Source: Methanobacteriota archaeon (GTDB taxonomy: Archaea > JAADCQ01 > Methanopyri > Methanopyrales > Methanopyraceae). From it: 64,000 bases of DNA. How positions within the stretch are numbered: position 1 is the stretch's first letter; each line of letters begins with the position of its first letter. The DNA lies in NCBI GenBank assembly GCA_027064425.1, contig JAMOPO010000057.1, positions 129,352 through 193,351 of the forward strand, read 5' to 3'. The translations under genes and the position numbers were made by a program. Positions 13,699 through 63,702 of this stretch are shown here, one piece after another. The notes beneath the pieces were generated by a model. It worked only from the letters and a program-made list of their open reading frames with translations, was not told where the DNA came from and did no database searches.

Positions 13699-13721
13699 AT
13701 CGTTACAGAGTTCAAAACGTT
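13699..13721. repeat. 23-bp palindrome, copy 1 (ATCGTTACAG-AGT-TCAAAACGTT)
   Basis: Degenerate match to ATCGTTACGA-N3-TCGTAACGAT, 8 bp after tRNA-Ala. Confidence 0.7.
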
Positions 13722-13737
13722 CCAAGGGGTGTCCGAC

Positions 13738-14766
13738 GTGCGCAGGCTCCTTCCGCCCGTGGTGGCGGTCGCGGTGGCGCTCCTGGCGGTCGTCGGGGCG
13801 GGCACGGTCGCCTTCAACCCCGCGGACAAGGTCCGCGAGTTCGACCCCAACCGCGCGCTGAACTTCGCCAAACAGGTCTGCAAGCTGGGTCCCAGGTACG
13901 GTGGCAACGACGCCGAGCTGAAGGCCGCGGACATGATGGAGCGGGAGCTCAGGAAGTACGGGCTGAACGTATGGAAGGAGAAGGTGGACCTTGGCGGCGG
14001 TAAGCACACGTACAACGTGATCGCGGAGATCAAGGGCACGAGGGAGCCGGACAAGTACGTGATCGTGGGCTCGCACATCGACTCGCCGGGCTTCTGCGAG
14101 GGCGCCACCGACGACGCGGCGGCCATGGGCATCCAGGTGGAGATGGCCCGGGTCCTGGCCAAGAACTTCCGGCCGAAGAAGACGGTCCTGATCATCGGGT
14201 TCGGCGGCGAGGAGCTCTGGTTCAAGGGCTCGGAGGCGTTCGTGAAGAAGCACCCGGACATCGTGAAGAACTGCGTGGCCATGATCGACCTGAACTGCGT
14301 GGGAGCCGGTGAGAACGTGTTCCTGACGAGGCGCAGCGCCAAGCCCAGCCCGGTCGAGGGAGACCCGAACCTGATCCGCACGCTCGAGCGGTGCGCGAGG
14401 GAGCTGGGGCACCCGGTGACCGTGGGTGACACGACCTACCCGAGCGACACGTACCCGTTCTACCACAACAAGATCCGGCGCGTACCGGTGTGCCAGGTGA
14501 TGAACCAGCCGTTCAAGGTCCCGCCGTGGAGCGGCTCCAACACGGCCGACAAGCTGGATCCGAAGGACATGGAGAAGACGGGTGAGACCGTGACCCTGGC
14601 CGTGGTGAAGCTGTCGAACGCGGAGCCCGCCGCGAAGCCGCTGTGGGAGGAGCAGCGCGAGCGGCAGCGGGCGCAGCAGCGGGGCTGGTTCACGCCCGTG
14701 TGGTGGGCGGTGGCGCTCGCGGGCCCGCTGATCCTGGCGATCGCGCGCCGGGGGCTGGCCCGATGA
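13738..14766 (+). CDS. M28-family peptidase-like exported protein with C-terminal TM
   Basis: Signal peptide, NVIAEIKG, SHIDS, GATDD, GEE..GS; some metal ligands appear changed. Confidence 0.8.
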   Translation: MRRLLPPVVAVAVALLAVVGAGTVAFNPADKVREFDPNRALNFAKQVCKLGPRYGGNDAELKAADMMERELRKYGLNVWKEKVDLGGGKHTYNVIAEIKGTREPDKYVIVGSHIDSPGFCEGATDDAAAMGIQVEMARVLAKNFRPKKTVLIIGFGGEELWFKGSEAFVKKHPDIVKNCVAMIDLNCVGAGENVFLTRRSAKPSPVEGDPNLIRTLERCARELGHPVTVGDTTYPSDTYPFYHNKIRRVPVCQVMNQPFKVPPWSGSNTADKLDPKDMEKTGETVTLAVVKLSNAEPAAKPLWEEQRERQRAQQRGWFTPVWWAVALAGPLILAIARRGLAR

Positions 14767-15305
14767 GGGCGCTGCTCATCATCGACATGATCCGGGACTT
14801 CGTGGAGGAGGGAGCCCCGCTGGAGGTGCCCGGGGCGCGCGACCTCGTCCCCACCATCGCCCGACTGGCGGGAGCGTTCCGGGACGCGGGCGAGCTCGTG
14901 GTTCACGTGTGGGACGAGCACTACCCGGGCGACCCGGAGTTCGAGGTGTGGGGCGAGCACGCGGTCGCGGGGACGGAGGGCGCCGAGCCGGTCGAGGGGC
15001 TGGAGCCGGAGGAGGGCGACCTGGTCGTTAAGAAGCGGAAGTACAGCGGGTTCTACGGCACGACGCTGGACTACGACCTCCGGGTCCGCGGCGTGAAGGA
15101 GCTGTACCTGACCGGCGTCTGCACGGACGTCTGCGTGCTGTTCACCTGCGCGGACGCGCTCATGAGGGGCTATGACGTTAAGGTGGTGAAGGACTGCGTG
15201 GCCTCCCTGGACGAGGAGGCGCACGAGTTCGCCCTCGAGCACATGGAACGGCTGGGCGCGGAGCTCGTCACCTCGGAGGAGGTGCTGCGGGGGCTGGAGG
15301 GGTGA
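14763..15305 (+). CDS. Isochorismatase/nicotinamidase-family cysteine hydrolase
   Basis: [22 protein letters not shown]. Confidence 0.9.
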
Positions 15306-16663
15306 CCCGGATCCTGGCACTCGTGGACGGTGAGCACTACATCCCCGTCACCCGGGCCGCCCTGAAGACCGTGGAGGAGGAGCTGGGCGAGCTGGTCGGG
15401 GCCGTGTTCATCGGCGGCACCGAGAAGATCGGCGAGCCGGAGGACGTCAAGCGGGAGCTGGGCGTTAAGGTGTGGCTGCCCGACGGGGACGGGATCCCGC
15501 TGGACCTGATCGAGGAGGTCGTGGAGCGCGAGCGCGTGGACGTGGTGCTGGACCTCAGCGACGAGCCCGTGGTCACCCCGGACGACCGGTTCAGGATCGC
15601 GGCCGCCGTCCTGTCCGCGGGCGCGGAGTACTGGTGCTCGGACCTCAAGCTCAAGCCCGTGGAGATGCACGACGTGCTCGAGAAGCCCTCGATGAGGATC
15701 ATCGGCACCGGCAAGCGCGTGGGCAAGACGGCCGTCTCCGCCTACTCCTGCCGCGTCCTGCACGCCCGCGGCTACAACCCGTGCGTGGTCGTGATGGGTC
15801 GGGGTGGGCCCAAGGAGCCGGAGGTGGTGCGCGGCGACGAGATCGAGCTGACCCCGGAGTACCTCCTGAAGGAGGCGGAGAAGGGCAAGCACGCGGCCAG
15901 CGACCACTGGGAGGACGCCCTGCTCAGTCGGATCCCGACCGTGGGTTGCCGGCGCTGCGCGGGCGGCCTCGCGGGCCGGACGTTCATCGACAACGTGCTG
16001 AAGGGCGCCGAGATCGCCAACGACCTACCGGCGGACTTCGTCGTGGTGGAGGGCAGCGGCGCCGCCATCCCACCGATCGAGACGGACTCGGGCATCATCA
16101 TCGTGGGCGCGAACCAGCCGCTGCGTCACGTGACCGGGTACCTGGGTCCGTACCGGATCCGACTGTGCGACCTGGCGATCATCACGATGTGCGAGGAGCC
16201 GATGGCGGACGAGGAGAAGGTGCGCCGCGTGGAGCGCGAGGTGCGCCGGGTGAAGGACGACCTGGAGGTGGTCCTGTCGGTCTTCCGGCCCAAGCCCACC
16301 GAGGACGTCTCGGGCAAGAAGGTCGTGTTCGTAACCACCGCGCCCGAGGAGGTGGTGCCCAAGCTCGTCGACCACCTCGAGACCGAGTACGGGTGCGAGG
16401 TCGTGGGCACGTCGCCCCACCTGAGCAACCGGCCGAAGCTGCGTGAGGACCTGGAGAAGTACGTGGACGAGGCGGAGGTGCTGCTCACGGAGCTGAAGGC
16501 CGCGGCCGTGGACGTGGCCACGCGCGAGGCGCTCCGGGCCGGGCTGGACGTGGTCTACGTGGACAACGTGCCGGTGGCCGTCGGTGGCGACTACGACCAC
16601 GTGGGCGACGCGGTCGAGAGCGCGGCGGAGCTGGCGATCGACCGGTTCGAGGGCGGCTCCTAA
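15302..16663 (+). CDS. cpgS: Cyclic 2,3-diphosphoglycerate synthetase
   Basis: [40 protein letters not shown]. Confidence 0.95.
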
Positions 16664-16716
16664 GCGCCCGCCCTCTCGCCCACCGTAGTTCATTTGCAGG
16701 AAACTAAATCGGGCGG

Positions 16717-16956
16717 CTAGCGGCCCTCCTCCGCGGCGAGCCCCAGCACGACCTCCAGGAAGGCCCGCTGGACGTCCTCCTTCTCCACGTACCTCTTTCC
16801 TCGCGCCGAGGCCAGCTCGCCCGCCCGCTCCCCGATCCGCTCCGCGAGCCGCTGCACGCTGTCACGCAGGGCGACGGACGCCCGCTGGCTGACCCTCATC
16901 CCCTTTCCCGCCGCCCGCAGCTTGCGATCGAACGGCGCCACCGGCAGCTCCGACAC
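16717..16956 (-). CDS. Archaeal histone-fold protein (divergent singlet)
   Basis: VSELPVAPFDRKLRAAGKGMRVS...ELASARGKRYVEKEDV aligns to HMf-type ELPIAP...RVS...GRKTIKAED. Confidence 0.8.
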   Translation of the reverse strand: MSELPVAPFDRKLRAAGKGMRVSQRASVALRDSVQRLAERIGERAGELASARGKRYVEKEDVQRAFLEVVLGLAAEEGR

Positions 16957-16984
16957 GCTCCCCGACCCCCTCGGGGAGCGGGCC

Positions 16985-17767
16985 TTGACCGAGGTAAAAG
17001 TGTTGAAAGAGCCCACGCCCGAGGAGCTAAAGCCGCTGGCCGAGGACCTCGGCAAGCGACCCGTCCTGATCGCCGGGATCTGCGAGGCGGAGTACCGGGG
17101 GCGGGCCGAGTCCCGGGCCGGCCCCGCCCTCCGGCTGGCCATCTGCAAGCCGGACGGCACCTTCCTGCTGCACAACGCCCTGGAGAAGCGCGAGCCGACC
17201 AACTGGAACCCCGCCCCGTCCCGCCAGTCCCTCGAGGTGAGGGACGACCTCGTCATCCTCCGCTCCCGCCGCCTCGACGTGAGAGAGGAGGTGATCGTGT
17301 ACTTTCACCGGGTCCTGCTCGCCTGCTCCCTGCCCAAGGAAGGGGCCAGGAGCGAGGAGTCCGTGTTCTCGCTGTTCAAGTCCGAGGACGACATGAAGCG
17401 CGTCATCTGGGAGAATCCGGACGTCATCGAGCCCGGCTTCAAGCCGGTCAGGGAGGAGGTCGAGTGCCGGGCCGGCATCGCCGACATGATCGGGTACGAC
17501 GCCGACGGACGCCTCGTGGTCCTCGAGCTCAAGCGGGCCCGGGCCAGCGTCGACGCCGCCTCCCAGCTCCGCCGGTACGTGGAGGCCTTCCGTGAGGAGC
17601 GGGGGGAGGAGGTGCGAGGCATCCTGGTCGCCCCGTCCATCACCGACGGCTGCCGGCGCCTCCTGGAAAAGTACGGGCTGGAGTGGCGGCAGCTCGAACC
17701 CAAAGCCGCGGACCGAGACGGAAAGGGGGACGGCCAGCGCACGCTCACCGAGTTCCTGGGGGACTGA
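16985..17767 (+). CDS. nucS: Endonuclease NucS/EndoMS
   Basis: YRGRAES, KPDGTFLLH, PTNWNP, SEDDMK, ELKR, QLRRY, RGILVAP. Confidence 0.93.
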   Translation: MTEVKVLKEPTPEELKPLAEDLGKRPVLIAGICEAEYRGRAESRAGPALRLAICKPDGTFLLHNALEKREPTNWNPAPSRQSLEVRDDLVILRSRRLDVREEVIVYFHRVLLACSLPKEGARSEESVFSLFKSEDDMKRVIWENPDVIEPGFKPVREEVECRAGIADMIGYDADGRLVVLELKRARASVDAASQLRRYVEAFREERGEEVRGILVAPSITDGCRRLLEKYGLEWRQLEPKAADRDGKGDGQRTLTEFLGD

Positions 17768-24346: not shown

Positions 24347-25546
24347 TTGAGGTGGTGGCTAATTCTCGTGCTAGGGGCGCTTCTAGCCGCTGCGCCCGCC
24401 CGGGCGGACCTGGCTGACCAGGTGCGGGATCGGTGCGTTAAGGCGACCCAGTGGCTGATCGAGCATCAGCGCCCGGACGGCGGTTGGCTCTACGAGGGCA
24501 CAAACAAGTCCTCGAGCATGGACACCGGCGTGGTCCTGCTGGGACTCTCCGAGTTTTACAACCGAGCGCCGGAGAATCTGAAGCCAAGAATCAAGGAGGC
24601 CGTGGACCGAGGCGTCTCATACGTCTTGAAGTGCTGGGACTCGAACCGGAAGATGTTCTGGGATTACCCGGGGCAGAGTGAGCACGAGGACTGGCTGCCG
24701 ATGTACACGGTGCACGCGCTCATGGGGCTGATCGCGGTCGAGAAGCACTTCCCAGACATCGCCAAGAAGTACAACGTCGACCGGTACGTGACGGAGGCAC
24801 TGGAGAGGCTGATGAGCCTGCAGCGGCCCGACGGGACGTGGGCCAACTTCGGCCCGGGCTCCTGGCAGGACCCGTACCGGTGCACGCCGATCGTGGTCTG
24901 GCTGGCGGAGTGGTCGGGCAAGTACAAGCCCAGCGACCCGCGCGTCAAGAGGGCGTTGGAGTGGATCGAGGGGATCCTGACGAGGTCGCCCCTGGGCGGC
25001 CTGATCTCGCGGGGGGTCAAGATCGACTTCACCGCGTGGGACCTGCTGGCGTTTTACTACTCCGGCGATCGGTACTACCGGAGCTTCGTGCCGAAGCTGC
25101 AGCAGGGACTGTTGGGATTCCAGAGGAAGGATGGTGCGTTCGCCGCGCACACCTCGGTGAATGACACGGTGTACGGCCCGAACGGCACGGCGGCGCCCTG
25201 CCCGCACAAGACGGCCCGGGTGCTCTTCGCCCTAATGAAGACGGGGATGGACCCGTTCGGCGACCGGATCAAGCGGGCCGTGGAGTTCCTGCTGAACACC
25301 AAGAGCCAGGACCCGGACGGGTCGTGGTTCTGGCCCACGATGGATAATCCGAGCAAGCCGCAGGAGGTGGCCTGCCGGGCGTACTCCACGGGCTGGTGCC
25401 TGGCGGCGCTGGCGGCGTGGCTGGAGAAGGCGCAGCGGAGCCAGCAGGGCATCCAGCGAGGGGGTAAGAGACCTAGGGTGCCGGTCAGCCCGGCGATCAC
25501 ACTGGTTGGGCTGATAGCCGCCCTGATTGCGCCCAGGCGGTTCTAG
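24347..25546 (+). CDS. Secreted prenyltransferase/squalene-cyclase (QW)-repeat alpha-alpha toroid protein
   Basis: Repeats QRPDGGW, QRPDGTW, QRKDGAF, QDPDGSW; signal peptide; VPVSP, TM, RRF. Confidence 0.8.
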   Translation: MRWWLILVLGALLAAAPARADLADQVRDRCVKATQWLIEHQRPDGGWLYEGTNKSSSMDTGVVLLGLSEFYNRAPENLKPRIKEAVDRGVSYVLKCWDSNRKMFWDYPGQSEHEDWLPMYTVHALMGLIAVEKHFPDIAKKYNVDRYVTEALERLMSLQRPDGTWANFGPGSWQDPYRCTPIVVWLAEWSGKYKPSDPRVKRALEWIEGILTRSPLGGLISRGVKIDFTAWDLLAFYYSGDRYYRSFVPKLQQGLLGFQRKDGAFAAHTSVNDTVYGPNGTAAPCPHKTARVLFALMKTGMDPFGDRIKRAVEFLLNTKSQDPDGSWFWPTMDNPSKPQEVACRAYSTGWCLAALAAWLEKAQRSQQGIQRGGKRPRVPVSPAITLVGLIAALIAPRRF

Positions 25547-25580: not shown

Positions 25581-25603
25581 ATCGTTACGATTTTCAAAAC
25601 ATT
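25581..25603. repeat. 23-bp palindrome, copy 2 (ATCGTTACGA-TTT-TCAAAACATT)
   Basis: Between convergent genes. Confidence 0.8.
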
Positions 25604-25618: not shown

Positions 25619-26656
25619 TCACTCGAGCTCCTCCAGCTTAGCCGGCAGGTACTCCTCGACGACGTAGTCCAGGGAATACTTCGCGAAGGCCTGCTGCTCG
25701 GCCTTCTTACCCAGTCGGGCGAGGAGGTCCAGCTCGCGCTGCCAGAACTCGGTGTCGTAGCGAGGGTCCCGTTTCAGCTCCTCGATGCGCTTGCGGTCGG
25801 CCTCGGTGAGCGGCTCGGTGGGGAGGTCGTACTCCACGATGTCGGTGGCCGTGACGCCGATGAACTTGGCGTCGGGGCAGGCGAGCTCGTGGTTCAGGTG
25901 CGCGGCCTTGGCGCTCCCGCTCCGGATGACCATGTAGATGTGCCAGCCGTACGGATCGCCGTCGGTGAACACGTACACGGGGAGGCCGAGCTCCTCGTTC
26001 AGGCGGCGGAGGAGGCGCCGAGTGGCCCGGGCGGCCTGACCCTTGAGCCCGACGATCAGGGCGTCGAGCTTCTCGTGGGCCCGCTCCTGAACCAGCCTGC
26101 GGTACATTCCCATGGTCTCGACGGCGATGACGCGCTCGGCGCCGCAGTCCAGGAGCTCGACGGCGTCCACGTTGGGCGGGATGTTGTAGCCGCTGATGCC
26201 GGCCTTTTCGGCGTGGATCTTGACCCCGTCCTCCTCCACGAGCAGGTCGCCGTAAACGGCGGCCCCGTCCTCCTCGGGCCAGATGCCGAACTCCTCGCGC
26301 TTGAGCCCGAGCACGGCCTCGAGGTCCTCAACGATGGCGTCGCTCTCGCGCTGGTCCTTGAAGGGCAGCTCCCAGCCCTCACTCGTGTAGTAAAGCTCTC
26401 GGAGGGTGGCGGAGCGGCCGGACTCGACCAGCTTCTTGGCGAAGGCGGCGACGCTCATCATCTGGGCGAGCTTTTTGGAGCCGCGGAGGGTGTGAGGGCG
26501 GCGCTTGTACGTGTCGTCGCCGATCGTGTAAATGCGCCGCTCGGGGTCGTACTCGATGTTGGAGGTCGTGCGTTTGGGCACCTCCAGCGGCTCGTCCTCC
26601 TCGAGGCAGCGGAGGACGCGTCGGGCGAACTCGCGCAGCCGCTCGAGGGCCGTCAT
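25619..26656 (-). CDS. top6A: DNA topoisomerase VI subunit A
   Basis: TLRELYY, AVETMG, KGQAARATR, TDGDPYG, KAEQQA. Confidence 0.95.
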   Translation of the reverse strand: MTALERLREFARRVLRCLEEDEPLEVPKRTTSNIEYDPERRIYTIGDDTYKRRPHTLRGSKKLAQMMSVAAFAKKLVESGRSATLRELYYTSEGWELPFKDQRESDAIVEDLEAVLGLKREEFGIWPEEDGAAVYGDLLVEEDGVKIHAEKAGISGYNIPPNVDAVELLDCGAERVIAVETMGMYRRLVQERAHEKLDALIVGLKGQAARATRRLLRRLNEELGLPVYVFTDGDPYGWHIYMVIRSGSAKAAHLNHELACPDAKFIGVTATDIVEYDLPTEPLTEADRKRIEELKRDPRYDTEFWQRELDLLARLGKKAEQQAFAKYSLDYVVEEYLPAKLEELE

Positions 26657-38724: not shown

Positions 38725-38747
38725 ACCGTTACGAGCATCAGAACGAT
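38725..38747. repeat. 23-bp palindrome, copy 3 (ACCGTTACGA-GCA-TCAGAACGAT)
   Basis: Between convergent genes. Confidence 0.8.
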
Positions 38748-38756: not shown

Positions 38757-40928
38757 TCACCGACCGCGGCGGGGCGCGAGCAGCAGCAGTGAGACCGCGG
38801 CCCCCAGGAGCGAGGCCCCCGCCGTCCACCCGCTGGGTCTCCACCGGAACTCCACGGTCGTGGGCCCCGGGAGGCGAAGCAGCAGCATGTTGTCGAGCCC
38901 GCCCAGCCGCTCCCCCCTCGACGGCCTCCAGCACGGGAAGTAAGGGACCTTGATCCACACGAGACCCCGCCCGACCACCCGGACGCGCGCGTGGTCGACG
39001 CGCACGGGAACGGGCTTGAGGCGCCTTCGGGGCAGCTCGTGGACGATCTCCGACGGCCTCAGGTACCGGATCGTGACCCCGTCGACGCGCTCGGTCAGGC
39101 GCTGGTCCCTCCGCATCACGAGGACCTCCTTAACCCCGCACCCTCTGAGCTCCCGCACCTGGTCCGGCGTGGGCGGCCGGTCCATCACGACCACCTCGGG
39201 CCTGGCCTCCCGGACCAGGCGGCAGCTCACGCTGCGGGTGAAGGCGTAAGCGGGCACCACGCGCGGGTCGAACCGCGCCAGCTTGCACAGCCGCATGTAC
39301 CGGTACTTGTTGCCCAGGAAGACCGACTTCACGCCGTCCAGCTCGTAGCCCATCGGCGCCCGGAACTCGTACACCTTGACCCAACGGTAGTCGCGGACGG
39401 GCCGGACGCCCATCCGGCGCAGCTCGTGCATGCACCTCCGGGCGTACGGCTTCCGGGCGCTGAGCACGAGGTAGCGCACGCCCAGGACCCGGCCGATGGC
39501 CAGCGCGCGGTGCACCTCCACGCGCTTGAAGGAGCGCTGATACTGGATGATCGCGTCCCGGATGGGCGTACCCTCCCGGAACCACCCGAACACGGCCGGC
39601 TTGTCCACGATGTACGGCGTCATCCCCCACATCGCCCGGTAGCCCACGGTGGCGACCCGGTCCCACGGGCCACCGTGCTCGCGGACCCACAGCAGCGCGG
39701 CCATCTCGGATTTGGTGTAGTGAACGGGGCGGTACGCGCAGGACAGGCCCGCGGCGGCGTCGCAGAGGCAGCCCGCGCAGATCAGGGCCAGCAGGGCGAT
39801 CGACCAGCGCGGGATCAGGGCGCGGATCCACTCCACCGCGAACGCGCCGAGCGCGCACAGGATGGCGGTAGAGAACATCAGGAACCACTTGGGCTCGAAC
39901 CCGATCGATTCCATTTCGCGCTGGAGGACGAGTCCAAAGGACAGGAAGACCGCCAGCGGGAGCAGCACGGCGAAGGGGAGGAACGCGCGGGGCCTGCGGC
40001 GGACGGCCAGCAGCAATCCGGCCCAGCCGAGGAAGAACTGGGCGGCGCCGACGTACTTGGCGTACCGGGTCTTCCAGTACTTCGGCACGAAGAGCTCGAG
40101 CGGGTCGTGCACCGAGGACATGTGGATCCACCAGGGCGGCTTGGTCGTGTACGTGTAGGTCCGGTAGGCCAGGGCGGGGTACAGCCACCAGGAGATGGAC
40201 ATCACCGCGAGCGCCGCGGCCGTCACGACCCAGAAGTGGCCGGGCAGGTCGGGCAGGAGGTCCGGCAGGTGTAGCCGACCGCGCAGCACCTGTCCGGAGG
40301 TGAAGGAGAGTCGCAGGAGCGCGTAGGTCAGGCACAGGATCAGCGCCGCCAGGCCGGTGCTGTGGTGCGTTAGGAACGTCAGTGCGAGGACGATCGCGAG
40401 GGCGCCGGCGAGCCTGCGTCGGTTCCGGCGCGGGTCGTAGACCGCCACGAGGAGGCCCGGAACGAGCGCGTAGAACGCCATGGCCGCGACGGTGGGGATC
40501 CTCCCCTCGGTGAACGTGATCTCGATGTGGTTGTACGACGTCTGGTAAAGCAGCGCCGCGATGAGCGAGGGTAGCGGTCCCGCGCCGAAGAGTCGGGCGG
40601 TAGCGTACACGGAGGGCCCGGCCAGCGCGTACGCGAGAACGATCCACACCTTCCACACCGTGAGAACGTCGGCGCCGGTTACCCGAGCCACCGCGCCCGG
40701 CACCAGGTAGGACAGCGGTGGGTAGTACCACAGGAAGGGATACCCGCAGTACCAGTACTCGGACCAGGCGGGGTAGGGCCAGTCGCCCAGCGACCACAGC
40801 TTCTCGAGCATCCAGACCTTGGTCATGTGACCCCGGGCGTCCGCCCCGCTCGGGAACCAGTTCCAGCCGTAGTTGAGGGCCGGAGACGCGATCGCCGCTC
40901 CGAGCAAGAAAGTTAGGGCCGCCAGCAT
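38757..40928 (-). CDS. Polytopic membrane protein, PTPS-related / GT-C-like
   Basis: GADARGH..K, WSEYWYCGYPFLWYYPPL, many TM helices, YFPCW near the C-terminus. Confidence 0.75.
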   Translation of the reverse strand: MLAALTFLLGAAIASPALNYGWNWFPSGADARGHMTKVWMLEKLWSLGDWPYPAWSEYWYCGYPFLWYYPPLSYLVPGAVARVTGADVLTVWKVWIVLAYALAGPSVYATARLFGAGPLPSLIAALLYQTSYNHIEITFTEGRIPTVAAMAFYALVPGLLVAVYDPRRNRRRLAGALAIVLALTFLTHHSTGLAALILCLTYALLRLSFTSGQVLRGRLHLPDLLPDLPGHFWVVTAAALAVMSISWWLYPALAYRTYTYTTKPPWWIHMSSVHDPLELFVPKYWKTRYAKYVGAAQFFLGWAGLLLAVRRRPRAFLPFAVLLPLAVFLSFGLVLQREMESIGFEPKWFLMFSTAILCALGAFAVEWIRALIPRWSIALLALICAGCLCDAAAGLSCAYRPVHYTKSEMAALLWVREHGGPWDRVATVGYRAMWGMTPYIVDKPAVFGWFREGTPIRDAIIQYQRSFKRVEVHRALAIGRVLGVRYLVLSARKPYARRCMHELRRMGVRPVRDYRWVKVYEFRAPMGYELDGVKSVFLGNKYRYMRLCKLARFDPRVVPAYAFTRSVSCRLVREARPEVVVMDRPPTPDQVRELRGCGVKEVLVMRRDQRLTERVDGVTIRYLRPSEIVHELPRRRLKPVPVRVDHARVRVVGRGLVWIKVPYFPCWRPSRGERLGGLDNMLLLRLPGPTTVEFRWRPSGWTAGASLLGAAVSLLLLAPRRGR

Positions 40929-40976
40929 CGGATCCCTACGCTCCACGGCCCAGCGCCCCGCCGTCGGGGTGGGACC

Positions 40977-42140
40977 GTGCGCGACCGGGAAGAGGCGGTT
41001 AATTACCTGTCGGAGCTCCTGGGCGTTGAGGAGTGGAAGGTCAGGGAGGCGCTGAAGCGCGGCACGATTCGGCGGGTTAAGCTGTCGTTCCCGGACTTCG
41101 AGTACTACCGCCTCGTCAGAGACTTCGGGGGTTACGAGCGGGGCACGCTGGTCGTTCCCGAGCACGATCTGGTCGTTCGAGGCTTCCCGAAGATCGAGCG
41201 GGCCCTGCTGCTCGAGCCGGCGCTGAGGACCCGGTTCGGCGACGGGGGACGCGTGGTCGTCGAGGAGAAGATGAACGGGCACAACGTGCGCCTGTTCGAG
41301 GTGGAGGGCGAGGTGTACGCCGCGACCCGAGGCGGGCTCATCTGCCCGTACACGACGCACCGCGTCCGGGAGCTCTGCGGTGAGGAGCTCCGGAGCTTCC
41401 TGGAGGACCATCCCGACACCGTGGTCTGCGCGGAGTTCGTGGGCCGCGAGAACCCGTACGTGTCCAAGGAGTACCCGGAGGCCCCGGACGTTGGTCTCTT
41501 CGTCTTCGACGTCCGCGACCTGGACGGGAGGTTTTGGTCCTTCGAGGAGAAGCGGGCCGTGGACGAGTACGGACTGGAGCGCGTCCGCTGCTTCGGCGAG
41601 TTCAGCGTCGAGGAGGCGGTCGAGGAGGTTCCACGCATCATCCGGGAGCTGGACCGGGAGGGTCGCGAGGGGGTCGTCATCAAGGACCCGGGTCGGGAGA
41701 AGCCCCCGCTGAAGTACACGACCCACTCCGCGCACGTGGAGGAGCTCGAGTGGGCGTTCACGTTCGCGTTCGATCTGGGTCGCGACTTCGTGCTCACGCG
41801 CACCATCCGGGAGGGCTTCCAGTCCTTCGAGTGGGAGGAGGACGAGGAGGAGCTGGAGCGCCGGGCGGCGGACGTCGGTCGGGCCATCGTGGAGGGGCTG
41901 AGGCGCGCGCTGGAGCGGATGAGGGACGGCGGCGGGGCCGTGGAGGAGGTCCCGCTCACGTTCGCCTCGATGCGGTGGTACCGCAGGTACGAGGAGTTCG
42001 TCAAGCATGTCACTGGGGGGACTCACACGCTCGAGATAGTCAGCGAGGACGATGATGGTAGGGTTAAGGCCGTGCTGAAGAAAAGGTACGTCAGGACTGA
42101 AGATAAGGTCAAAAGCATATTCGAGGAGGGGGTGCTCTAG
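40977..42140 (+). CDS. ATP-dependent RNA ligase, Rnl3 (Pab1020) family
   Basis: RGFPKIER, EEKMNGHNVR, TRGGLICPYTT, REGVVIK, LKYTT. Confidence 0.92.
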   Translation: MRDREEAVNYLSELLGVEEWKVREALKRGTIRRVKLSFPDFEYYRLVRDFGGYERGTLVVPEHDLVVRGFPKIERALLLEPALRTRFGDGGRVVVEEKMNGHNVRLFEVEGEVYAATRGGLICPYTTHRVRELCGEELRSFLEDHPDTVVCAEFVGRENPYVSKEYPEAPDVGLFVFDVRDLDGRFWSFEEKRAVDEYGLERVRCFGEFSVEEAVEEVPRIIRELDREGREGVVIKDPGREKPPLKYTTHSAHVEELEWAFTFAFDLGRDFVLTRTIREGFQSFEWEEDEEELERRAADVGRAIVEGLRRALERMRDGGGAVEEVPLTFASMRWYRRYEEFVKHVTGGTHTLEIVSEDDDGRVKAVLKKRYVRTEDKVKSIFEEGVL

Positions 42141-42617
42141 GTGGAGATCGAGATCCCGGGCCGGGGCGCCCTGAGCGTGGAGCACGTGCTGCTGGACTAC
42201 AACGGGACGATCGCCGTGGGCGGGAGGCTGTCCGAAGAGGTGGCGAGCCTGCTGCGCGACCTGGCCGAGGAGGTGGACGTGCGGATCCTCTCGGCCGACA
42301 CGTACGGCACCGTGGATGAGGAGCTGGAGCGACACGACCTGGCGGATGTGGTGAGCGTGGAGCGGGTCGCGGGGGACGAGCGGTTGAAGAAGGGAGAGGT
42401 CGTGCTGGAGCTGGGACCCGACCGGTGCGCGGCCGTCGGCAACGGGGCGAACGACGAGCTCATGCTGCGGTACGCGGCCCTGGGAATCTGCGTCGTCGGT
42501 CCTGAGGGCGCCTACACCGGGACGCTCCTGGCCGCGGACGTGGTGGTGACCAGGCCCGAGGACGCGATCAACCTGCTCCTGAACCCGCGCGCACTCAGGG
42601 CCACCCTGCGGTGTTGA
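42141..42617 (+). CDS. HAD-family soluble P-type ATPase-like phosphatase
   Basis: DYNGT, SADTYG, VGNGAND. Confidence 0.85.
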   Translation: MEIEIPGRGALSVEHVLLDYNGTIAVGGRLSEEVASLLRDLAEEVDVRILSADTYGTVDEELERHDLADVVSVERVAGDERLKKGEVVLELGPDRCAAVGNGANDELMLRYAALGICVVGPEGAYTGTLLAADVVVTRPEDAINLLLNPRALRATLRC

Positions 42618-42620
42618 GCC

Positions 42621-43886
42621 ATGCGGATCCTGCTCGAGGGACGCGTCTACCACCGGGGCCGGTTCACGAAGGCCCGGGTCCTGATCGAGAACGGTTGGAT
42701 CGTGGACGTGTCCCGCTCGGTCGACGAGGAGGTCGACCTGCGGCTGAGGCTTCGGGACGACGAGGTGGCGCTGCCGGCCCCCGTCGACCTGCACGTGCAC
42801 TGCCGCGACCCGCACCCGGACTACGAGTACGACTTCCGGACGGAGACCCTCCGGATGCTCCTCGGCGGCGTCGCCACCGTCGTGGACATGCCGAACACGA
42901 GGCCCGCCCCGGTCGACGCCGAGGCGTACCGGGAGAAGGAGGAGGCGGCCCGGGAGAAGGCGCTGGTTGAGGTCATCGTGTCCGGGGCCGTGAAGGATCG
43001 CGGGAACGTCCGGGAGCTGGTCGAGGCCGGGGTGCCGGTGCTCGGCGAGGCCTTCCTGGCCCCCTCCACCGACGCCCCCGCGCTCGACCCGGCCGAGGTT
43101 CCCGGGGTCCTGAGGGCCGCGGGCGACACCCCGGTCCTGTTCCACGCGGAGCTGGCCGACCTGGTGTCTGAGGACGACGCGAGCGACCTGCTGGAGCACC
43201 AGGCGAACCGGCCCCCGGAGGCCGAGGCGACCGCGGTTGGGATGCTGGCGGGCGCGGTGTCCGCCGTCGGCGGCCGGGCGCACGTGTGCCACGCCACGCT
43301 ACCCGAGTCCGTGGAGCTGGCGCGGCGGGCCGGGATGACCGTGGAGGTGACGCCGCATCACCTGCTCTTCGACACGTTGAAGGCGGACGCGCGGGATCCC
43401 ACGCTGAAGGTGAACCCGCCGATTCGGGGCCGCCGGCAGCGGCTCGGGCTGCTCGAGCTGGTGCGCAGGGGTCGGGTGGACGTGCTGGCCTCCGATCACG
43501 CCCCTCACCCGGCGACGGAGCGGTTCGAGGAGGCTCCCTCCGGGGTCTCCTCGGGCGGGCTGCTGCTGCCGGTCGCGCTGACGCTGTACCGGCGGTTCGG
43601 CGTGCCGCTGCGCCGGGCGGTGGACATGGTCACCCGGAACCCGGCGAGGGTGCTCGGTCGGCGGGACCTGGGGGAGCTGGCCCCGGGTCGAAGGGCTCGG
43701 ATCGTGGTGGTCGAGCTCCGGGAGTTCGAGGTCGACGCCGGGAGGTTCCTGGAGGAGGGCCGGAAGTTCCCTTATGACGGGTTCCGGATGTACGGGCTGC
43801 CCACGCTGCTCGTCCTGGAGGACCGGGTCTACGACCTTAAGGAGTCCAGGCGGACCGGTGAACCCGTGCTCGTGGAGGGGGAGTGA
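42621..43886 (+). CDS. pyrC: Dihydroorotase
   Basis: DLHVHCRD, DMPNT, EVTPHH, KVNPP, SDHAPH. Confidence 0.9.
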   Translation: MRILLEGRVYHRGRFTKARVLIENGWIVDVSRSVDEEVDLRLRLRDDEVALPAPVDLHVHCRDPHPDYEYDFRTETLRMLLGGVATVVDMPNTRPAPVDAEAYREKEEAAREKALVEVIVSGAVKDRGNVRELVEAGVPVLGEAFLAPSTDAPALDPAEVPGVLRAAGDTPVLFHAELADLVSEDDASDLLEHQANRPPEAEATAVGMLAGAVSAVGGRAHVCHATLPESVELARRAGMTVEVTPHHLLFDTLKADARDPTLKVNPPIRGRRQRLGLLELVRRGRVDVLASDHAPHPATERFEEAPSGVSSGGLLLPVALTLYRRFGVPLRRAVDMVTRNPARVLGRRDLGELAPGRRARIVVVELREFEVDAGRFLEEGRKFPYDGFRMYGLPTLLVLEDRVYDLKESRRTGEPVLVEGE

Positions 43887-45917: not shown

Positions 45918-46310
45918 ATGGAGTTCGAGGAGTACCTGGAGGAGTGGTTCAAGGGTGAGACCACCGAGGTGGGCATCTACATGGCGATGGCCATCGTCGC
46001 ACGAGAGCAGGGGTACCCGGACGTCGCCGAGCTGCTGGAGCAGGTGGCCATGGACGAGGCGCGGCACGCGGCCGCCGCAGCGCTGATCGCCGGCAAGGTC
46101 GAGAACAGCCTGGACGGGCTCATCGAGAAGCTCGAGGAGATGATTGAAGGGGAGAAGCAGGCCTACGAGACGCGGATGGACGAGGCCGACCACCACTCGG
46201 ACGAGCTGGACGACGAGGTGATCACCCTGCTGAAGGCCACCGCCTACGACGAGAAGCACCACAGGAAGATGCTTAAGGCGGCGCTGAAGCGGCTCAAGGA
46301 GGAGGCCTAA
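45918..46310 (+). CDS. Rubrerythrin/ferritin-like diiron protein
   Basis: GETTE..Y, DEARH, GEK, DEKHH. Confidence 0.85.
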   Translation: MEFEEYLEEWFKGETTEVGIYMAMAIVAREQGYPDVAELLEQVAMDEARHAAAAALIAGKVENSLDGLIEKLEEMIEGEKQAYETRMDEADHHSDELDDEVITLLKATAYDEKHHRKMLKAALKRLKEEA

Positions 46311-46330: not shown

Positions 46331-46353
46331 ATCGTTACGATCATCGAAACGAT
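46331..46353. repeat. 23-bp palindrome, copy 4 (ATCGTTACGA-TCA-TCGAAACGAT)
   Basis: 20 bp after the stop of the ferritin-like gene. Confidence 0.85.
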
Positions 46354-56737: not shown

Positions 56738-57508
56738 TTGGACCGCCCCGTGGACGCGCACTGCCACCTCTGCTTCGACCACTTCAAGGGCGAGGAGGAG
56801 GACGTCGTCGAGCGCGCCCGCGACCGAATCCTTCGAATGTACGACTGCGGCGTCACCCCGGGCACCGCCCGACGGACGCTCGAGCTGGCCCGCCGGTTCG
56901 ACGGCTTCGTCTTCCCCACGATCGGTCTGCACCCGCCGAGGGCCCCGAGGATGCAGGACCGAGTCATCGACGAGGTGGTGGAGATCATCCGGGAGCATGC
57001 GGACGAGCTGGCGGCGATCGGCGAGATCGGGCTGGACTACCACTACATCAAGCGGGCCGACGAGCGCGAGTGCATGCGGGAAGTCTTCGAGCGGTTCCTG
57101 AGACTCGCCGAGGAGCTCGACAAGCCGGTCGTCATCCACGCTCGGGAGGCGGAGGAGGACGCCTTCGAGATCCTGCAGGAGTACGACGTGACCGCGATGT
57201 TCCACTGCTACGACGGCCCGCCGGAGCTGGCCCGGAGGATCGCGGAGGAGGGGCACTACGTCTCCTTCTCCACCATCCTCATCATCCGCGGCCTCACCAA
57301 CCGCACCCGGGAGCTGATCGAGTCGGTGCCGCTCGAGCGCATCCTGACGGAGACGGACAGCCCTTACCTCTCGCCCGAGAAGGGGAGGCGGAACGAGCCC
57401 AAGAACGTCTGGAGGGTCGTGGAGCTGGTGGCGGAGGTGAAGGGGGAGCCGGTGGGTAAGGTGGTGGAGGCCACCGCCAAGAACGCCCTCGACTTCTACG
57501 ACCGGTAG
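56738..57508 (+). CDS. tatD: TatD-family nuclease
   Basis: DAHCH, GLHP, GEIGLDY, IHAR, FHC, ETDSPY. Confidence 0.92.
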   Translation: MDRPVDAHCHLCFDHFKGEEEDVVERARDRILRMYDCGVTPGTARRTLELARRFDGFVFPTIGLHPPRAPRMQDRVIDEVVEIIREHADELAAIGEIGLDYHYIKRADERECMREVFERFLRLAEELDKPVVIHAREAEEDAFEILQEYDVTAMFHCYDGPPELARRIAEEGHYVSFSTILIIRGLTNRTRELIESVPLERILTETDSPYLSPEKGRRNEPKNVWRVVELVAEVKGEPVGKVVEATAKNALDFYDR

Positions 57509-57524
57509 GAAAAAACTATAAATA
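57509..57524 (+). promoter_or_regulatory. BRE/TATA promoter of 5S rRNA
   Basis: GAAAAAACTATAAATA. Confidence 0.8.
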
Positions 57525-57546
57525 GAGGGGCCGGGCCGGCGCGAAA

Positions 57547-57672
57547 TGGCGGCGGCCACAGCGGCCGGGGCCACACCCGGGCTACATCTCGAACCCGGAA
57601 GTTAAGCCCGGCCGCGTCCCGGGTGGTACTGCGCTCCGAGAGGGCGCGGGAAGCCCGGGATGCCGCCGCCGT
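57547..57672 (+). rRNA. rrf: 5S rRNA (stand-alone)
   Basis: GGCGGCCACAGCGG...CATCTCGAACCCGGAAGTTAAGCC...GTACTG; helix I pairs the two ends. Confidence 0.95.
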
Positions 57673-57683: not shown

Positions 57684-57706
57684 ATCGTTATGAAAGTCGT
57701 AACGAT
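57684..57706. repeat. 23-bp palindrome, copy 5 (ATCGTTATGA-AAG-TCGTAACGAT)
   Basis: About 11 bp after the 5S rRNA. Confidence 0.85.
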
Positions 57707-58503: not shown

Positions 58504-58983
58504 GTGGTCGAGTACACGGACCGCGAGGGTCGTCGGGTCATCGTGCGGCGGGCGCGCCGGGATGATATCCCTGAGATCACCGAGATCGAGGAGCTGGCGT
58601 TCCCGAAGTCCCCGTACCCCACCTACGTCTTCCTGTACAACCTGTCGAACAACCCGGACGGGTTCCTCGTCGCGGAGGTCTCCGGGCGGGTCGTGGGTTA
58701 CATCATCTTCGAGACGCGTCCGTGGTTGAACGAGGGACACATCGTCTCGATCGCGGTGCACCCGGACCATAGACGGCGCGGGATCGGGACCATCCTCATG
58801 AAGGAGGCGGAGCGGAGGATCGCCGAGCGAGGGTACGACGTGGTCCGGCTGGAGGTTCGAGAGTCCAACTTCGGCGCGCGTCGGTTCTACGAGCGGTTGG
58901 GATACGAGGTGGAGCGTCGGGAGCCCGGCTACTACTCGGACGGCGAGACGGCCGTCATCATGGTCAAGCGGCTGAGGAAATAG
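58504..58983 (+). CDS. rimI: N-acetyltransferase, RimI/Ard1 family
   Basis: GHIVSIAVHPDHRRRGIG, LEVRESN, YYSDGE. Confidence 0.88.
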   Translation: MVEYTDREGRRVIVRRARRDDIPEITEIEELAFPKSPYPTYVFLYNLSNNPDGFLVAEVSGRVVGYIIFETRPWLNEGHIVSIAVHPDHRRRGIGTILMKEAERRIAERGYDVVRLEVRESNFGARRFYERLGYEVERREPGYYSDGETAVIMVKRLRK

Positions 58984-59002
58984 TTACGACACTCGTAACG
59001 AT
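58980..59002. repeat. 23-bp palindrome, copy 6 (ATAGTTACGA-CAC-TCGTAACGAT)
   Basis: Overlaps the rimI stop; 8 bp past the 3' end of the convergent tRNA-Arg. Confidence 0.85.
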
Positions 59003-59010: not shown

Positions 59011-59087
59011 TGGTGGCCCCGCCGGGATTTGAACCCGGGCTACGGGCTCCGCAGGCCCGCGTCCTATCCAGGCTAGACTGCGGGGCC
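59011..59087 (-). tRNA. tRNA-Arg(GCG), genomic C8, encoded CCA
   Basis: GGCCCCG-C-AGTC...CGGGC CTGCGGA GCCCG...TTCAAAT...CGGGGCCACCA. Confidence 0.97.
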
Positions 59088-60471: not shown

Positions 60472-60486
60472 GGGCCCCGCCCCCAC

Positions 60487-61053: not shown

Positions 61054-61075
61054 GCCCACCGCGGGGGGAGAGCCG

Positions 61076-62371: not shown

Positions 62372-62392
62372 CCACCACGCGGGGGCCGCACC

Positions 62393-62938: not shown

Positions 62939-62985
62939 GCGGCGGGCCCAGCGACGAGAAGGGCGACGGAAGGCGGGAGACCACC

Positions 62986-63429
62986 TCACCCGACGCCCTT
63001 CTTGATCTTCTTCACCACCCGCACGTCCTCAATCCTCGTGTGCGGGTACTGCCCCTCCTCGTCCTTCTCCGCGTACTTCACCATGTCCCAGAGCGTGACC
63101 AGCCCCACCACCAGCCCCGTGAGCGCGTCCATCTCCACGCCCGTCTTACCCACCGACTTCACCCGCACCGTCATCTCCGCACCGTCCTCCCTCACCTCCA
63201 CGTCCACGTCGACCCCCGTGATCCTCACCGGATGACAGTGCGGGATCAGCTCCGGCGTCCGCTTAACCGCCAGCATCGCCGCCAGCCTCGCCGCCTCGAT
63301 CGGATCGCCCTTCCCCTGCGGGTGCGACTCCCGCCTCCTCAGCGCCTCCACGCCGTCCTTCGACAGCCTCAGGAACCCGCGAGCCTCCGCGATGCGAACC
63401 TGATCCTCCTTCCCCGTCACGTCCACCAT
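62986..63429 (-). CDS. moaC: Cyclic pyranopterin monophosphate synthase
   Basis: MVDVTGK, KRTPELIPHCHP, KTGVEMDAL, WDMVK. Confidence 0.95.
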   Translation of the reverse strand: MVDVTGKEDQVRIAEARGFLRLSKDGVEALRRRESHPQGKGDPIEAARLAAMLAVKRTPELIPHCHPVRITGVDVDVEVREDGAEMTVRVKSVGKTGVEMDALTGLVVGLVTLWDMVKYAEKDEEGQYPHTRIEDVRVVKKIKKGVG

Positions 63430-63487
63430 GGACAAGCCGAACACCCCGGCCGGAGCGGGACGCCGGACCCATAACCCGCACGATCCA

Positions 63488-63510
63488 AGCGTTACGAATC
63501 TCGTAACGAT
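63488..63510. repeat. 23-bp palindrome, copy 7 (AGCGTTACGA-ATC-TCGTAACGAT)
   Basis: Downstream of the sRNA cluster. Confidence 0.85.
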
Positions 63511-63523
63511 TGGCCCGGGACGG

Positions 63524-63581
63524 TCACCCCTAAAAGGGCTCGTCATCCGACGCGGTACGCCTGCGGGACTGCGATCATCCC
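63524..63581 (-). ncRNA. Candidate degenerate C/D box sRNA
   Basis: ATGATCG, 12 nt, CGTA ... ATGACGA, 12 nt, GTGA. Confidence 0.45.
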
Positions 63582-63612
63582 GGACCGGTTCGGGGCCCGT
63601 TCGGCCCCCAGC

Positions 63613-63669
63613 TCAGTCGGAGGAAAAGTCATCACCCGTGGCGCTTTCAGCAGGGGAGTGATTCATCAC
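63613..63669 (-). ncRNA. C/D box sRNA with canonical boxes
   Basis: GTGATGA-ATCACTCCCCTG-CTGA ... GTGATGA-CTTTTCCTCCGA-CTGA. Confidence 0.9.
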
Positions 63670-63679
63670 GGACCGCGAA

Positions 63680-63702
63680 TTTGTTACGGAACTCGTAACG
63701 AT
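63680..63702. repeat. 23-bp palindrome, copy 8 (TTTGTTACGG-AAC-TCGTAACGAT)
   Basis: Just past the 16S 3' trailer hairpin. Confidence 0.85.

Follow-up and report, generated by a model that had tools for sequence, protein, structure and literature searches.

The question raised by this locus is what a dispersed 23-bp palindrome, present in eight copies in the window (the whole 64,000-nt stretch analyzed here), is doing behind the 3′ ends of tRNA, rRNA, and protein genes alike. The eight copies had been listed in an earlier note on this DNA; all were found where it had placed them, and a symmetrised weight matrix, derived from copies collected across the genome, finds no ninth site in the window, the eight scoring 28.0 to 38.1 bits. 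Six copies (38725, 46331, 57684, 58980, 63488, and 63680) match ATCGTTACGA-N3-TCGTAACGAT with at most 3 mismatches, while dinucleotide shuffles (n=100) give an expectation of 0 such matches in the window; the weaker copies at 13699 and 25581 have 5 and 4 mismatches, respectively. Listing the sequences confirms that GTTA (positions 4-7), TC (14-15), and AAC (18-20) are the same in all eight, and that the element is, as had been said, AT-rich in a GC-rich genome (consensus 40% G+C vs 67.8% G+C).

Placement behind a 3′ end, also claimed in the earlier note, is true of each of the eight. Copy 1 (13699..13721; 32.8 bits) is 8 nt past the encoded CCA of a plus-strand tRNA-Ala(TGC) gene with its own upstream TATA box (13614..13690), and copy 5 (57684..57706; 1 mismatch, 38.1 bits) is 12 nt downstream of the plus-strand 5S rRNA gene (57548..57671), which has its own BRE/TATA at about 57508-57527. 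Copy 6 (58980..59002; 1 mismatch, 36.9 bits) is 8 nt past the encoded CCA of a minus-strand tRNA-Arg(GCG) gene (59011..59087) and covers the stop of a convergent, plus-strand GNAT acetyltransferase gene. Protein genes precede copies 2, 3, and 4: copy 2 (25581..25603; 33.6 bits) is flanked by a convergent squalene-hopene-cyclase-like gene (plus strand, ending at 25546) and Topo VI subunit A (minus strand, ending at 25619), copy 3 (38725..38747; 3 mismatches, 28.0 bits) by a convergent CBS-domain gene (plus strand, ending at 38709) and PTPS-related membrane-protein gene (minus strand, ending at 38757), and copy 4 (46331..46353; 1 mismatch, 37.8 bits) is 20 nt 3′ of the stop of a rubrerythrin gene (45918-46310, plus strand). 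The 16S rRNA gene, whose 3′ part lies at 63787..64000 on the minus strand and which runs past the window end, is followed first by copy 8 (63680..63702; 3 mismatches, 33.3 bits), 84 nt beyond its 3′ end and, read in the 16S sense, with a perfect proximal half and a weak distal half, and then by copy 7 (63488..63510; 1 mismatch, 36.1 bits), beyond the C/D-box sRNA region 3′ of 16S and 43 nt ahead of the start of moaC (minus strand). Between these two copies is a candidate minus-strand C/D-box sRNA (63613..63669) with C, D′, C′, and D boxes; it begins 10 nt past copy 8, and a TATA box of its own was looked for and none was seen, which suggests read-through of copy 8 and counts against termination at that copy. 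A second C/D-box sRNA, on contig C2, is likewise bracketed by two palindromes.

The same pattern holds across the genome. A weight-matrix scan of the 1.54-Mb assembly (57 contigs, 99% complete), of the kind the earlier note had proposed, gives 118 sites with a score of at least 10 bits vs 1 for a reversed-matrix control on the same genome. Every large contig has sites, at a density of one per 13-19 kb, and they are tied to 3′ ends, so the suggestion of a matS/parS-like organiser is a poor fit. All 37 tRNA 3′ ends, identified by T-arm and CCA, have a palindrome 5-10 nt past the encoded CCA, and tRNA-SeC also has one behind its 3′ end; between the same-strand neighbors tRNA-Ala and tRNA-Ile, a palindrome is followed by a new TATA box before the next gene. 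For eighty of the 118 sites, a predicted 3′ end is no more than 100 nt away (47 CDS, 31 tRNA, 5S, and 16S), and about 50 non-tRNA gene ends, including about 47 protein-gene ends, have the palindrome. Its neighbors include tRNAs, rRNAs, ribosomal proteins, Topo VI-A, rubrerythrin, NrdD, and the thermosome gene, which is followed by double sites, among others. Among intergenic regions of at least 23 nt, with protein-gene positions taken from a crude codon-statistics gene caller built for this analysis, there are 34 sites in 87 convergent regions, 54 in 397 tandem regions, and 6 in 207 divergent regions; of these last 6, at least 4 are truly behind intron-containing tRNA genes missed by ARAGORN. 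The observation that sites fall behind 3′ ends and hardly ever in divergent promoter regions thus extends to the whole genome.

Each of the 6 genomes belonging to the lineage has the motif; 25 other archaeal families were sampled, and none has it. In a congener (G002), the weight matrix finds it behind 31 of 31 tRNA genes; the rubrerythrin and L7Ae orthologs have it behind them in all 6 genomes, in flanks that have diverged past alignment, while the copy 2 palindrome is retained in the 3′ flank of the Topo VI-A ortholog in 3 of the 6. Locus L002 has a counterpart of copy 3 in the orthologous position.

The earlier note did not recognize the element as a described archaeal motif, and on this point it does not stand: its core, CGTTA(N)9TAACG, was printed in 2017 in BMC Genomics (PMC5217627) as lying about 10 bp past the tRNA genes of Methanopyrus kandleri AV19, with the suggestion that it is a target or signal for a tRNA 3′ maturation enzyme. 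Palindromic core, place, and lineage restriction agree, and we take the two for one element, seen there in a different genome of the lineage. The available text reports the motif at only about half of tRNA genes, in contrast to all 37 here and all 31 in the congener, plus the roughly 50 non-tRNA ends, and it makes no mention of 5S, 16S, sRNA, or protein-gene ends, of half-site independence, or of polarity (PMC5217627). Where that text guesses at tRNA maturation, the sequence statistics given below point to a protein site on double-stranded DNA.

As the general terminator the element is ruled out, since it is present at only 89 of the 555 gene ends that leave a gap of at least 30 nt. A search for another end signal at gene ends without it gave none. 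The canonical archaeal oligo-T signal was looked for, and T5 occurs in just 2 of 130 convergent 3′ ends lacking a site and in 1 of the 89 site-bearing gene ends. Nor is there a hairpin excess in the 3′ flanks without a site, where stems of at least 8 bp occur in 1.0% vs 1.0% in shuffles (n=401). The codon-bias score is slightly higher in genes with a palindrome behind them (0.62 vs 0.55, p=0.0013).

Is the element read as DNA or as RNA? The earlier note had held that its substitutions are not compensatory, and genome-wide the mirrored positions do change independently: changes fall on one side 203 times vs 56 on both, and Fisher tests on mirrored positions are non-significant except for subsets with nominal p values of 0.02-0.04. 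Mismatched pairs on the sense strand are G.U 54 times vs A.C 59, and the flanks add nothing to the stem (3.3 of 8 positions paired vs 3.46 with permuted partners). Pairing is possible at about 8 of 10 stem positions on average, but a perfect stem of at least 8 bp is present in just 22% of the site-bearing flanks (n=54). Of the site hairpins, 86% are predicted to be unfolded at 85 °C, and at 98 °C the figure is 100%; M. kandleri is stated to grow at 84-110 °C (PMC5217627). The 3-nt “loop” shares in the symmetry, with a purine at position 11 in 64 of 80 sites and a pyrimidine at position 13 in 57 of 80, which counts against a hairpin, since a hairpin has no use for such symmetry. Hence the preference for duplex DNA bound by a dimeric protein over an RNA hairpin is borne out: independent half-sites, G.U about equal to A.C, an unextended stem, and predicted melting all favor that candidate assignment.

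The two half-sites are not equivalent. The gene-proximal half matches the consensus better at 22 sites vs 2 where the gene specifies a stable RNA (p=3.6e-5), and at the tRNA sites of the congener (n=31) it is the better half at 26 vs 0; at protein genes the polarity is non-significant (19 vs 13). The earlier idea of an orientation-independent element therefore does not hold in full, failing at stable-RNA genes, where the proximal half is systematically better. The distal half remains far from random, even at sites without a convergent gene.

The reading we prefer, to which we would give about an even chance, is that the element is a binding site for a two-fold symmetric protein acting as a polar roadblock terminator and insulator behind genes. 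A sequence-specific protein would occupy the double-stranded 23 bp as a homodimer or, given that each half (TCGTnACGA) is a 9-bp palindrome in itself, as a dimer of dimers, and, bound just behind the gene, would block RNA polymerase, making a factor-dependent roadblock. The fixed spacing of 5-10 nt at stable-RNA genes puts the CCA about 17-22 bp from the dyad, so if the protein halts a polymerase there, the transcript would end at or slightly past the mature 3′ end. As to what follows the stall, we infer that the polymerase may be cleared, perhaps by an aCPSF1/FttA-like nuclease that attacks the RNA immediately upstream, which is C-rich and G-poor, the genome having a single beta-CASP gene, and that the missing rescue factor TFS would aid this clearance (no TFS zinc ribbon was detected in the genome, and one is present in 4 of 4 archaeal controls). 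One difficulty is that, if the polymerase here stops 13 bp or more short of the edge of the protein, as other polymerases do, a tRNA transcript would end within the acceptor stem and not past the CCA. Another is that the better-kept proximal half could mean that this half does its work as a 3′ trailer of the transcript.

Eukaryotes and organelles offer close parallels in terminators that work as protein roadblocks. Reb1/Nsi1 and TTF-I (the “Sal box”) terminate transcription behind rRNA genes, and mTERF1 does so behind the mitochondrial 16S rRNA gene; these likewise use a specific double-stranded site just behind stable-RNA genes, but the proteins are unrelated and mostly monomeric with asymmetric sites, whereas here the site is two-fold symmetric and termination is conjectural. 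Reb1 and Rap1 are described as roadblocks for Pol II (PMC10310618), termination by roadblock is said to occur upstream of the signal (PMC6314782), and the strength of the yeast block is proposed to depend on the side encountered and on affinity (PMC10310618; PMC6314782), a further likeness. Within the Archaea, a review names Eta as a factor-dependent terminator (PMC7289017).

Archaeal termination is intrinsic at oligo-T or factor-dependent through aCPSF1/FttA or Eta, and what these routes would have in common with the palindrome is the purpose of ending transcription units. The beta-CASP gene here could act on the stalled complex in the manner of aCPSF1/FttA. The oligo-T signal is one of composition, in contrast to a conserved 23-bp sequence with no T-run at or near the sites. 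We know of no sequence-specific protein terminator in Archaea, and none was found in the literature accessible to our search.

An alternative that we consider unlikely, though the likeliest of the rivals, keeps the protein on double-stranded DNA and gives it a main job other than termination: it could mark a boundary or insulate, act as a replication-fork barrier, or provide a topology enzyme with a landing site. It draws on the same evidence for a dimeric protein as the roadblock, and the enrichment between convergent genes, the palindrome at every tRNA gene, and a layout (C-rich, palindrome, G-rich) that is symmetric on both strands all speak for it. As a fork barrier, the site would shield heavily transcribed stable-RNA genes from head-on collisions, and the eukaryotic rDNA terminator proteins (TTF-I, Reb1, the Fob1 region) serve also as fork barriers. 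A topology enzyme landing there would relieve the supercoils that gather in the gaps between convergent genes and behind 3′ ends; gyrase is bound by the REP/BIME elements found at 3′ ends in E. coli, and to our knowledge topoisomerase V is confined to Methanopyrus, as is the motif, but no topoisomerase is linked to a specific sequence. The CCA spacing and the polarity toward the upstream gene better fit coupling to the transcript end.

Somewhat more doubtful is a role in RNA, in which the transcribed palindrome or its proximal half would be a 3′ trailer, as a hairpin or a single-stranded protein site, for processing, trimming, or stabilisation; the maturation target put forward in the 2017 paper falls under this heading (PMC5217627). 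In every tRNA gene the site comes directly past the mature 3′ end and at a constant distance, as a trailer would have to, the better-kept half is the one likeliest to be transcribed, most stem positions can pair, and the palindromes bracket two C/D-box sRNAs like punctuation. Set against this are the lack of any enrichment of compensatory changes or preference for sense-strand wobble, the symmetric loop, the A+T-rich stem predicted to be melted at 85-98 °C, the scarcity of perfect stems, and a distal half far from random even with nothing converging on it. Moreover, a tRNA-specific RNA role leaves the copies behind 5S, 16S, and about 47 protein genes unaccounted for.

A selfish or passively spread repeat with no host function (a RAYT-moved REP, a MITE, or a DNA-uptake sequence) is very improbable and already largely refuted. 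REP/BIME elements are extragenic palindromes, often between convergent genes and sometimes in doublets, and the sites here share these features; like Rho-independent hairpins, they sit behind 3′ ends. REPs and Rho-independent hairpins are G+C-rich and maintained by compensatory change, the former coming with a RAYT transposase and the latter with a U-tract; the sites here show none of this. A search for a Y1 transposase gene, positive in 6 of 14 control genomes, detected none in the 99%-complete genome, hairpin covariation is absent, the placement behind tRNA genes is exact in both genomes counted, and orthologous sites are kept across 6 genomes amid diverging flanks; DNA-uptake sequences are far denser than the 1 per 13 kb seen here. 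Scarcely credible, too, is an ordinary operator through which a transcription factor controls one regulon from promoter-proximal sites: 23-bp two-fold symmetry is the usual operator form, but divergent promoter regions have almost no sites, 34 lie between convergent genes where promoters are absent, and the neighboring genes have no common pathway. The overlap with the promoters of one regulon, which the earlier note had named as refuting its reading, was checked and is not the case, the sites being behind unrelated genes; the single-regulon operator was excluded as a candidate.

To return to the polar roadblock: the systematic half-site polarity at stable-RNA genes is a new result, and on that reading the block would be polar there, with the stronger half-site facing the incoming polymerase.

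The dispersed palindrome, two half-sites around a 3-bp spacer, is a strongly non-random and lineage-specific feature. Its consensus is ATCGTTACGA-N3-TCGTAACGAT; 6 of the 8 copies in the window match with at most 3 mismatches (0 in 100 shuffles), and the copies at 13699 and 25581 carry 5 and 4 mismatches, respectively. The assembly comprises 1,539,955 bp in 57 contigs at 67.8% G+C, and the window, positions 129352-193351 of contig C57, carries two tRNA genes, the 3′ end of an archaeal 16S gene and a 5S gene standing on its own. A symmetrised weight matrix, trained on the genome's own copies and controlled by its reversed form, parts sites cleanly from noise, with 118, 112 and 106 sites at thresholds of 10, 14 and 20 bits against 1, 0 and 0 for the control. 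In the window it recovers exactly the eight copies claimed in the earlier note (starting at 13699, 25581, 38725, 46331, 57684, 58980, 63488 and 63680), at 28.0-38.1 bits, and none besides. Sites are spread over all large contigs, 11-27 per contig of 165-430 kb. Each half, read from the consensus as TCGTnACGA, is a 9-bp palindrome in itself, and this explains the outcome of the half-site spacing test, in which a half-site and its own reverse complement differ by one base.

Behind stable-RNA genes the placement is regular. ARAGORN made 35 tRNA calls, of which 3, with neither CCA nor TATA box, look false; each of the remaining 32 (32/32) has an encoded CCA, with the palindrome 5-9 nt beyond it. 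The intron mode of the program returned spurious giant introns, and a T-arm pattern was used in its place. This pattern gave 39 matches, 37 of them tRNA 3′ ends with CCA, and five of these 37 belong to intron-containing genes absent from the ARAGORN calls; a site lies 5-10 nt past the CCA in 37/37, tRNA-SeC likewise carries one 5-10 nt after its CCA, and no site stands behind the 2 matches that are without tRNA features. The five genes missed in the default run, each adjoined by an orphan palindrome and all outside the window, lie at ~15640-15800 of contig C5 (minus strand), ~183560-183720 (minus) and 204498-204661 (plus) of C15, ~31960-32120 of C27 (minus) and, in contig coordinates, ~58900-59070 of C57 (minus). 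Since they were found only via their orphan sites, the palindrome is a practical marker of unannotated RNA genes. The T-arm is nearly invariant, GGTTCAAATCC, across the 37 tRNA genes, all of them CCA-encoding (for example, window 13614-13690 and 59011-59087), and every tRNA gene has a TATA box of its own, even two genes 56 nt apart after a site (C27:52552-52793). Beyond the tRNAs, a site follows the end of the 5S gene at 12 nt and the end of the 16S gene at 84 nt; a 23S rRNA gene was not found in the assembly.

The two halves of the site are not equally conserved. At 33 stable-RNA sites the proximal half, nearer the upstream gene and facing the oncoming polymerase, shows 30 mismatches to the consensus (the preceding A included) against 68 in the distal half, and it is the better half at 22 sites and the worse at 2 (p=3.6e-5). 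The same count in the complete genome of a congener, G002, which has a site at 31/31 Rfam-detected tRNA genes, gives 52 mismatches proximal against 104 distal, the proximal half being better at 26 sites and worse at 0; several of the tRNA genes there are without an encoded CCA, and the site is nonetheless present. At protein-gene sites the bias is not significant (19 vs 13). On the sense strand the flanks are C-rich before the site and G-rich after it, tandem genes included (at the latter, C 53% and G 26% before, G 44% and C 27% after). Such statistics speak for a dimeric protein that binds the site and is polar towards the oncoming polymerase; alternatively, the better match of the proximal half may stem from a role of the element in the transcript.

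Were the palindrome a hairpin terminator, its pairing should be kept by compensatory or wobble changes, and its stem should be stable at growth temperature and lead into a U/T-run. Across 80 sites, oriented by the upstream gene, a contingency test found no association between mirrored positions beyond chance. Changes were one-sided in 203 cases and two-sided in 56, and although 20 of the latter restore a Watson-Crick pair, such variants are as frequent as independent half-sites would produce and the compensatory reading was dropped; nor does G.U (54) outnumber A.C (59) on the sense strand. These counts agree with the claim of the earlier note that substitutions in the palindrome are not compensatory. 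The two-fold symmetry extends into the 3-nt spacer, where position 11 is a purine in 64/80 and position 13 a pyrimidine in 57/80, and this counts against a hairpin because a hairpin loop cannot exploit such symmetry. A stem lengthened by the G+C-rich flanks is ruled out, pairing beyond the stem standing at 3.3 of 8 positions against 3.46 ± 0.13 with permuted partners. Under standard parameters, with high intracellular salt left out, the proportion of hairpins predicted to be melted is 86% at 85 °C and 100% at 98 °C; the growth of M. kandleri is stated as 84-110 °C in an excerpt of PMC5217627. T5 occurs in only 1/89 site-bearing ends. A structure-only hairpin class at other 3′ ends was looked for and not found, with no hairpin excess in 401 3′ flanks that are without a site. 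From half-site independence, spacer symmetry, the unextended stem and the predicted melting, a dimeric protein on double-stranded DNA, the structural reading first put forward, is well supported by the statistics over an RNA hairpin; as each half is palindromic, a dimer of dimers is also possible as the binder.

Protein-gene positions come from a crude, purpose-made codon-statistics caller, by which 80 of the 118 sites have a 3′ end no more than 100 nt upstream of them, belonging to a protein gene in 47 cases, to a tRNA in 31, and to 5S and 16S in one each. Among intergenic regions of at least 23 nt, sites number 34 in 87 convergent, 54 in 397 tandem and 6 in 207 divergent regions, and at least 4 of those 6 "divergent" sites really sit behind tRNA genes that were missed. 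The proposal that the sites stand behind 3′ ends and not in promoters is thus borne out genome-wide. An operator of one regulon is rejected on the same numbers, the few divergent cases being mostly artefacts and the neighbouring genes unrelated: sites are preceded by genes for Topo VI-A, a CBS protein, rubrerythrin, GNAT, thermosome, A-ATPase subunit A, ribosomal proteins S15 and L7Ae, NrdD, PdxS and others, with no pathway in common. The codon-bias score is slightly higher for site-bearing genes (0.62 vs 0.55 per codon; 51 vs 1449 genes, p=0.0013). The thermosome (Cpn60/TCP-1) gene has two palindromes directly behind it that overlap by 6 bp (C3:131778-131817); doublets within ~250 nt occur elsewhere in the genome on C2, C5, C11, C13, C15 (345500), C26, C27 (32018) and C48, and one is found in another genome of the lineage (G004, C4:17931/17954). 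The further suggestion of a parS/matS-like chromosome organiser did not stand, since, in a comparison at the level of the contigs rather than the chromosome, the 118 sites are found on all large contigs and are tied to 3′ ends, where the sites of such an organiser would be few, clustered in one chromosomal domain and independent of gene ends. A REP/RAYT element is improbable, as PF01797 (Y1, IS200/IS605-type) has 0 matches in this 99%-complete genome and was found in 6/14 control genomes. In short, tested as a hairpin terminator, a REP/RAYT element, an ordinary operator and a parS/matS-like site, the element fails each time.

The earlier note had suggested a scan of related genomes, and the motif is present in 6/6 genomes of the Methanopyrus lineage, at every Rfam-detected tRNA gene in the case of G002. 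At up to 2 mismatches the five other genomes of the genus hold 5-47 copies each, with 0 everywhere for the reversed control, and 25 genomes from 25 other archaeal families hold 0; the inner core occurs in 27-69 copies in each of the six, these six genomes making up the whole sample of the phylum-level group. The palindrome is kept in the 3′ flank of the rubrerythrin and L7Ae orthologs in 6/6 genomes and of the Topo VI-A ortholog in 3/6, and the flanks around these palindromes have diverged past alignment. Among 26 sites sampled in G002, 14 are behind tRNA genes, 6 at most 100 nt behind ORFs and 1 at 269 nt, and 5 are without a called neighbour. The palindrome is also kept at the ortholog of the 38725 site in a further locus, L002. 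In the window, 38757-43292 (minus strand) reads as a 1511-aa open frame, most of it spurious: Pfam has no match to the upstream 788 residues, genes for an RNA ligase (Pab1020 type), a HAD-like protein and an amidohydrolase lie on the opposite strand, and the 80% identity over 1-1510 reflects conserved DNA and not a genuine long protein. At 68% G+C, this genome easily yields misleading antisense ORFs.

Other termination signals are scarce. At 130 convergent 3′ ends without a site, T5 occurs in 2 and A5, on the same strand, in 3, and canonical archaeal oligo-T terminators are practically absent from this genome. No strand-specific 5-mer rose above 2.2-fold in the 447 site-free 3′ flanks, and these ends show no oligo-T, hairpin excess or strand-specific 5-mer as a second signal. 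The TFS/TFIIS zinc ribbon (PF01096) has no match in the 99%-complete genome and matches in 4/4 archaeal controls, which agrees with the statement in a review passage that M. kandleri is the sole archaeon without TFS (PMC7289017). The genome has one beta-CASP gene only (C15:353813-354187 region). Several observations count against the palindrome as a termination site: of the 555 gene ends followed by a gap of at least 30 nt, only 89 bear it, no signal was found for the rest, and the 63680 copy is probably read through, since a C/D-box sRNA starts 10 nt past it without a TATA box of its own. Downstream of the 16S gene (window 63511-63787, minus strand) a palindrome comes first, then at least one C/D-box sRNA (63613-63669), a second palindrome and moaC, and neither tRNA-Ala nor 23S follows the 16S gene in the window. 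A general link to C/D-box sRNAs is rejected, as 2 of 6 pattern candidates in the genome are framed by palindromes and 4 have none. On small contigs, a repeated element of ~60-100 nt with CAACTTATGCGATGAGCTCGC or close variants precedes five palindromes (C2:~540-700, C2:~3150-3300, C13:~2130-2270, C46:~1-129 and C48:~730-890); this could represent a family of small-RNA genes, or else the end of an assembly-breaking repeat.

A termination function of the palindrome is plausible. A two-fold symmetric, sequence-specific protein would occupy the palindrome and halt RNA polymerase, with the stronger half-site facing the enzyme. A CCA-to-site gap of 5-10 nt would put the mature tRNA end ~17-22 bp from the dyad, of the order of the distance at which other stalled polymerases hold the RNA 3′ end, and from this fixed distance we infer that primary transcripts would end at or near the encoded CCA. 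Without TFS, cleavage rescue of a backtracked polymerase would be impossible, and removal of the stalled enzyme would follow, with the beta-CASP nuclease, acting on C-rich RNA, as a possible agent. Roadblock termination takes place upstream of the signal and has been proposed to depend on affinity, as set out in part of PMC6314782, and roadblocks can be orientation-dependent according to an excerpt of PMC10310618. The fullest form of the proposal, which we hold tentatively and at somewhat below even confidence, is that in Methanopyrus a polar, lineage-specific, sequence-specific protein-DNA terminator replaced oligo-T at all stable-RNA genes and a subset of protein genes, spaced so as to place the ends of primary tRNA transcripts at the encoded CCA or beside it, and that the loss of TFS may have enabled or forced the change.

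The motif is already described: its core has been in print since 2017, when CGTTA(N)9TAACG was reported under the name "tRNA downstream", ~10 bp behind roughly half the tRNA genes in M. kandleri AV19, was called specific to that organism and was guessed to be the target of a 3′ maturation enzyme (PMC5217627, in excerpt). On that description the palindrome is the same element: the core CGTTA-N9-TAACG is contained in the consensus, and the tRNA-downstream position and, among the genomes searched, the restriction to the lineage are matched here. The literature searched holds no further description, and the portion seen of the main text of a 2013 paper on M. kandleri small RNAs mentions neither trailers nor the palindrome (PMC3695527). 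What is new here is the full coverage of tRNA genes, the copies behind 5S, 16S, an sRNA and ~47 protein genes, the statistics against a hairpin, a polarity that had gone unnoticed in the earlier note, the conservation at orthologous protein-gene ends and the link to missing oligo-T and TFS. The motif is thus of a known kind and functionally unexplained, and the variation among its copies supports the structure first inferred for it. Functionally the element may resemble the Reb1, TTF-I and mTERF protein terminators, with which, judging by position and by variation of a double-stranded-DNA type, it would share a candidate binding site directly behind the transcript end.

To our knowledge, the ends of archaeal transcription units are poorly understood beyond oligo-T tracts, aCPSF1/FttA and Eta. 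Here is a genome of 68% G+C with virtually no T-runs and no TFS, yet with a sharp 23-bp element behind every tRNA, 5S, 16S and dozens of protein genes. Confirmation would mean that Archaea possess a sequence-specific terminator protein, and the system, if true, would be the first of its kind there, a functional analogue of mTERF, TTF-I and Reb1. With it a published orphan motif would be accounted for, annotators would gain a precise marker of transcript ends and missed RNA genes, and the Methanopyrus lineage would become a natural system in which to study how an archaeal, Pol II-like polymerase terminates at roadblocks.
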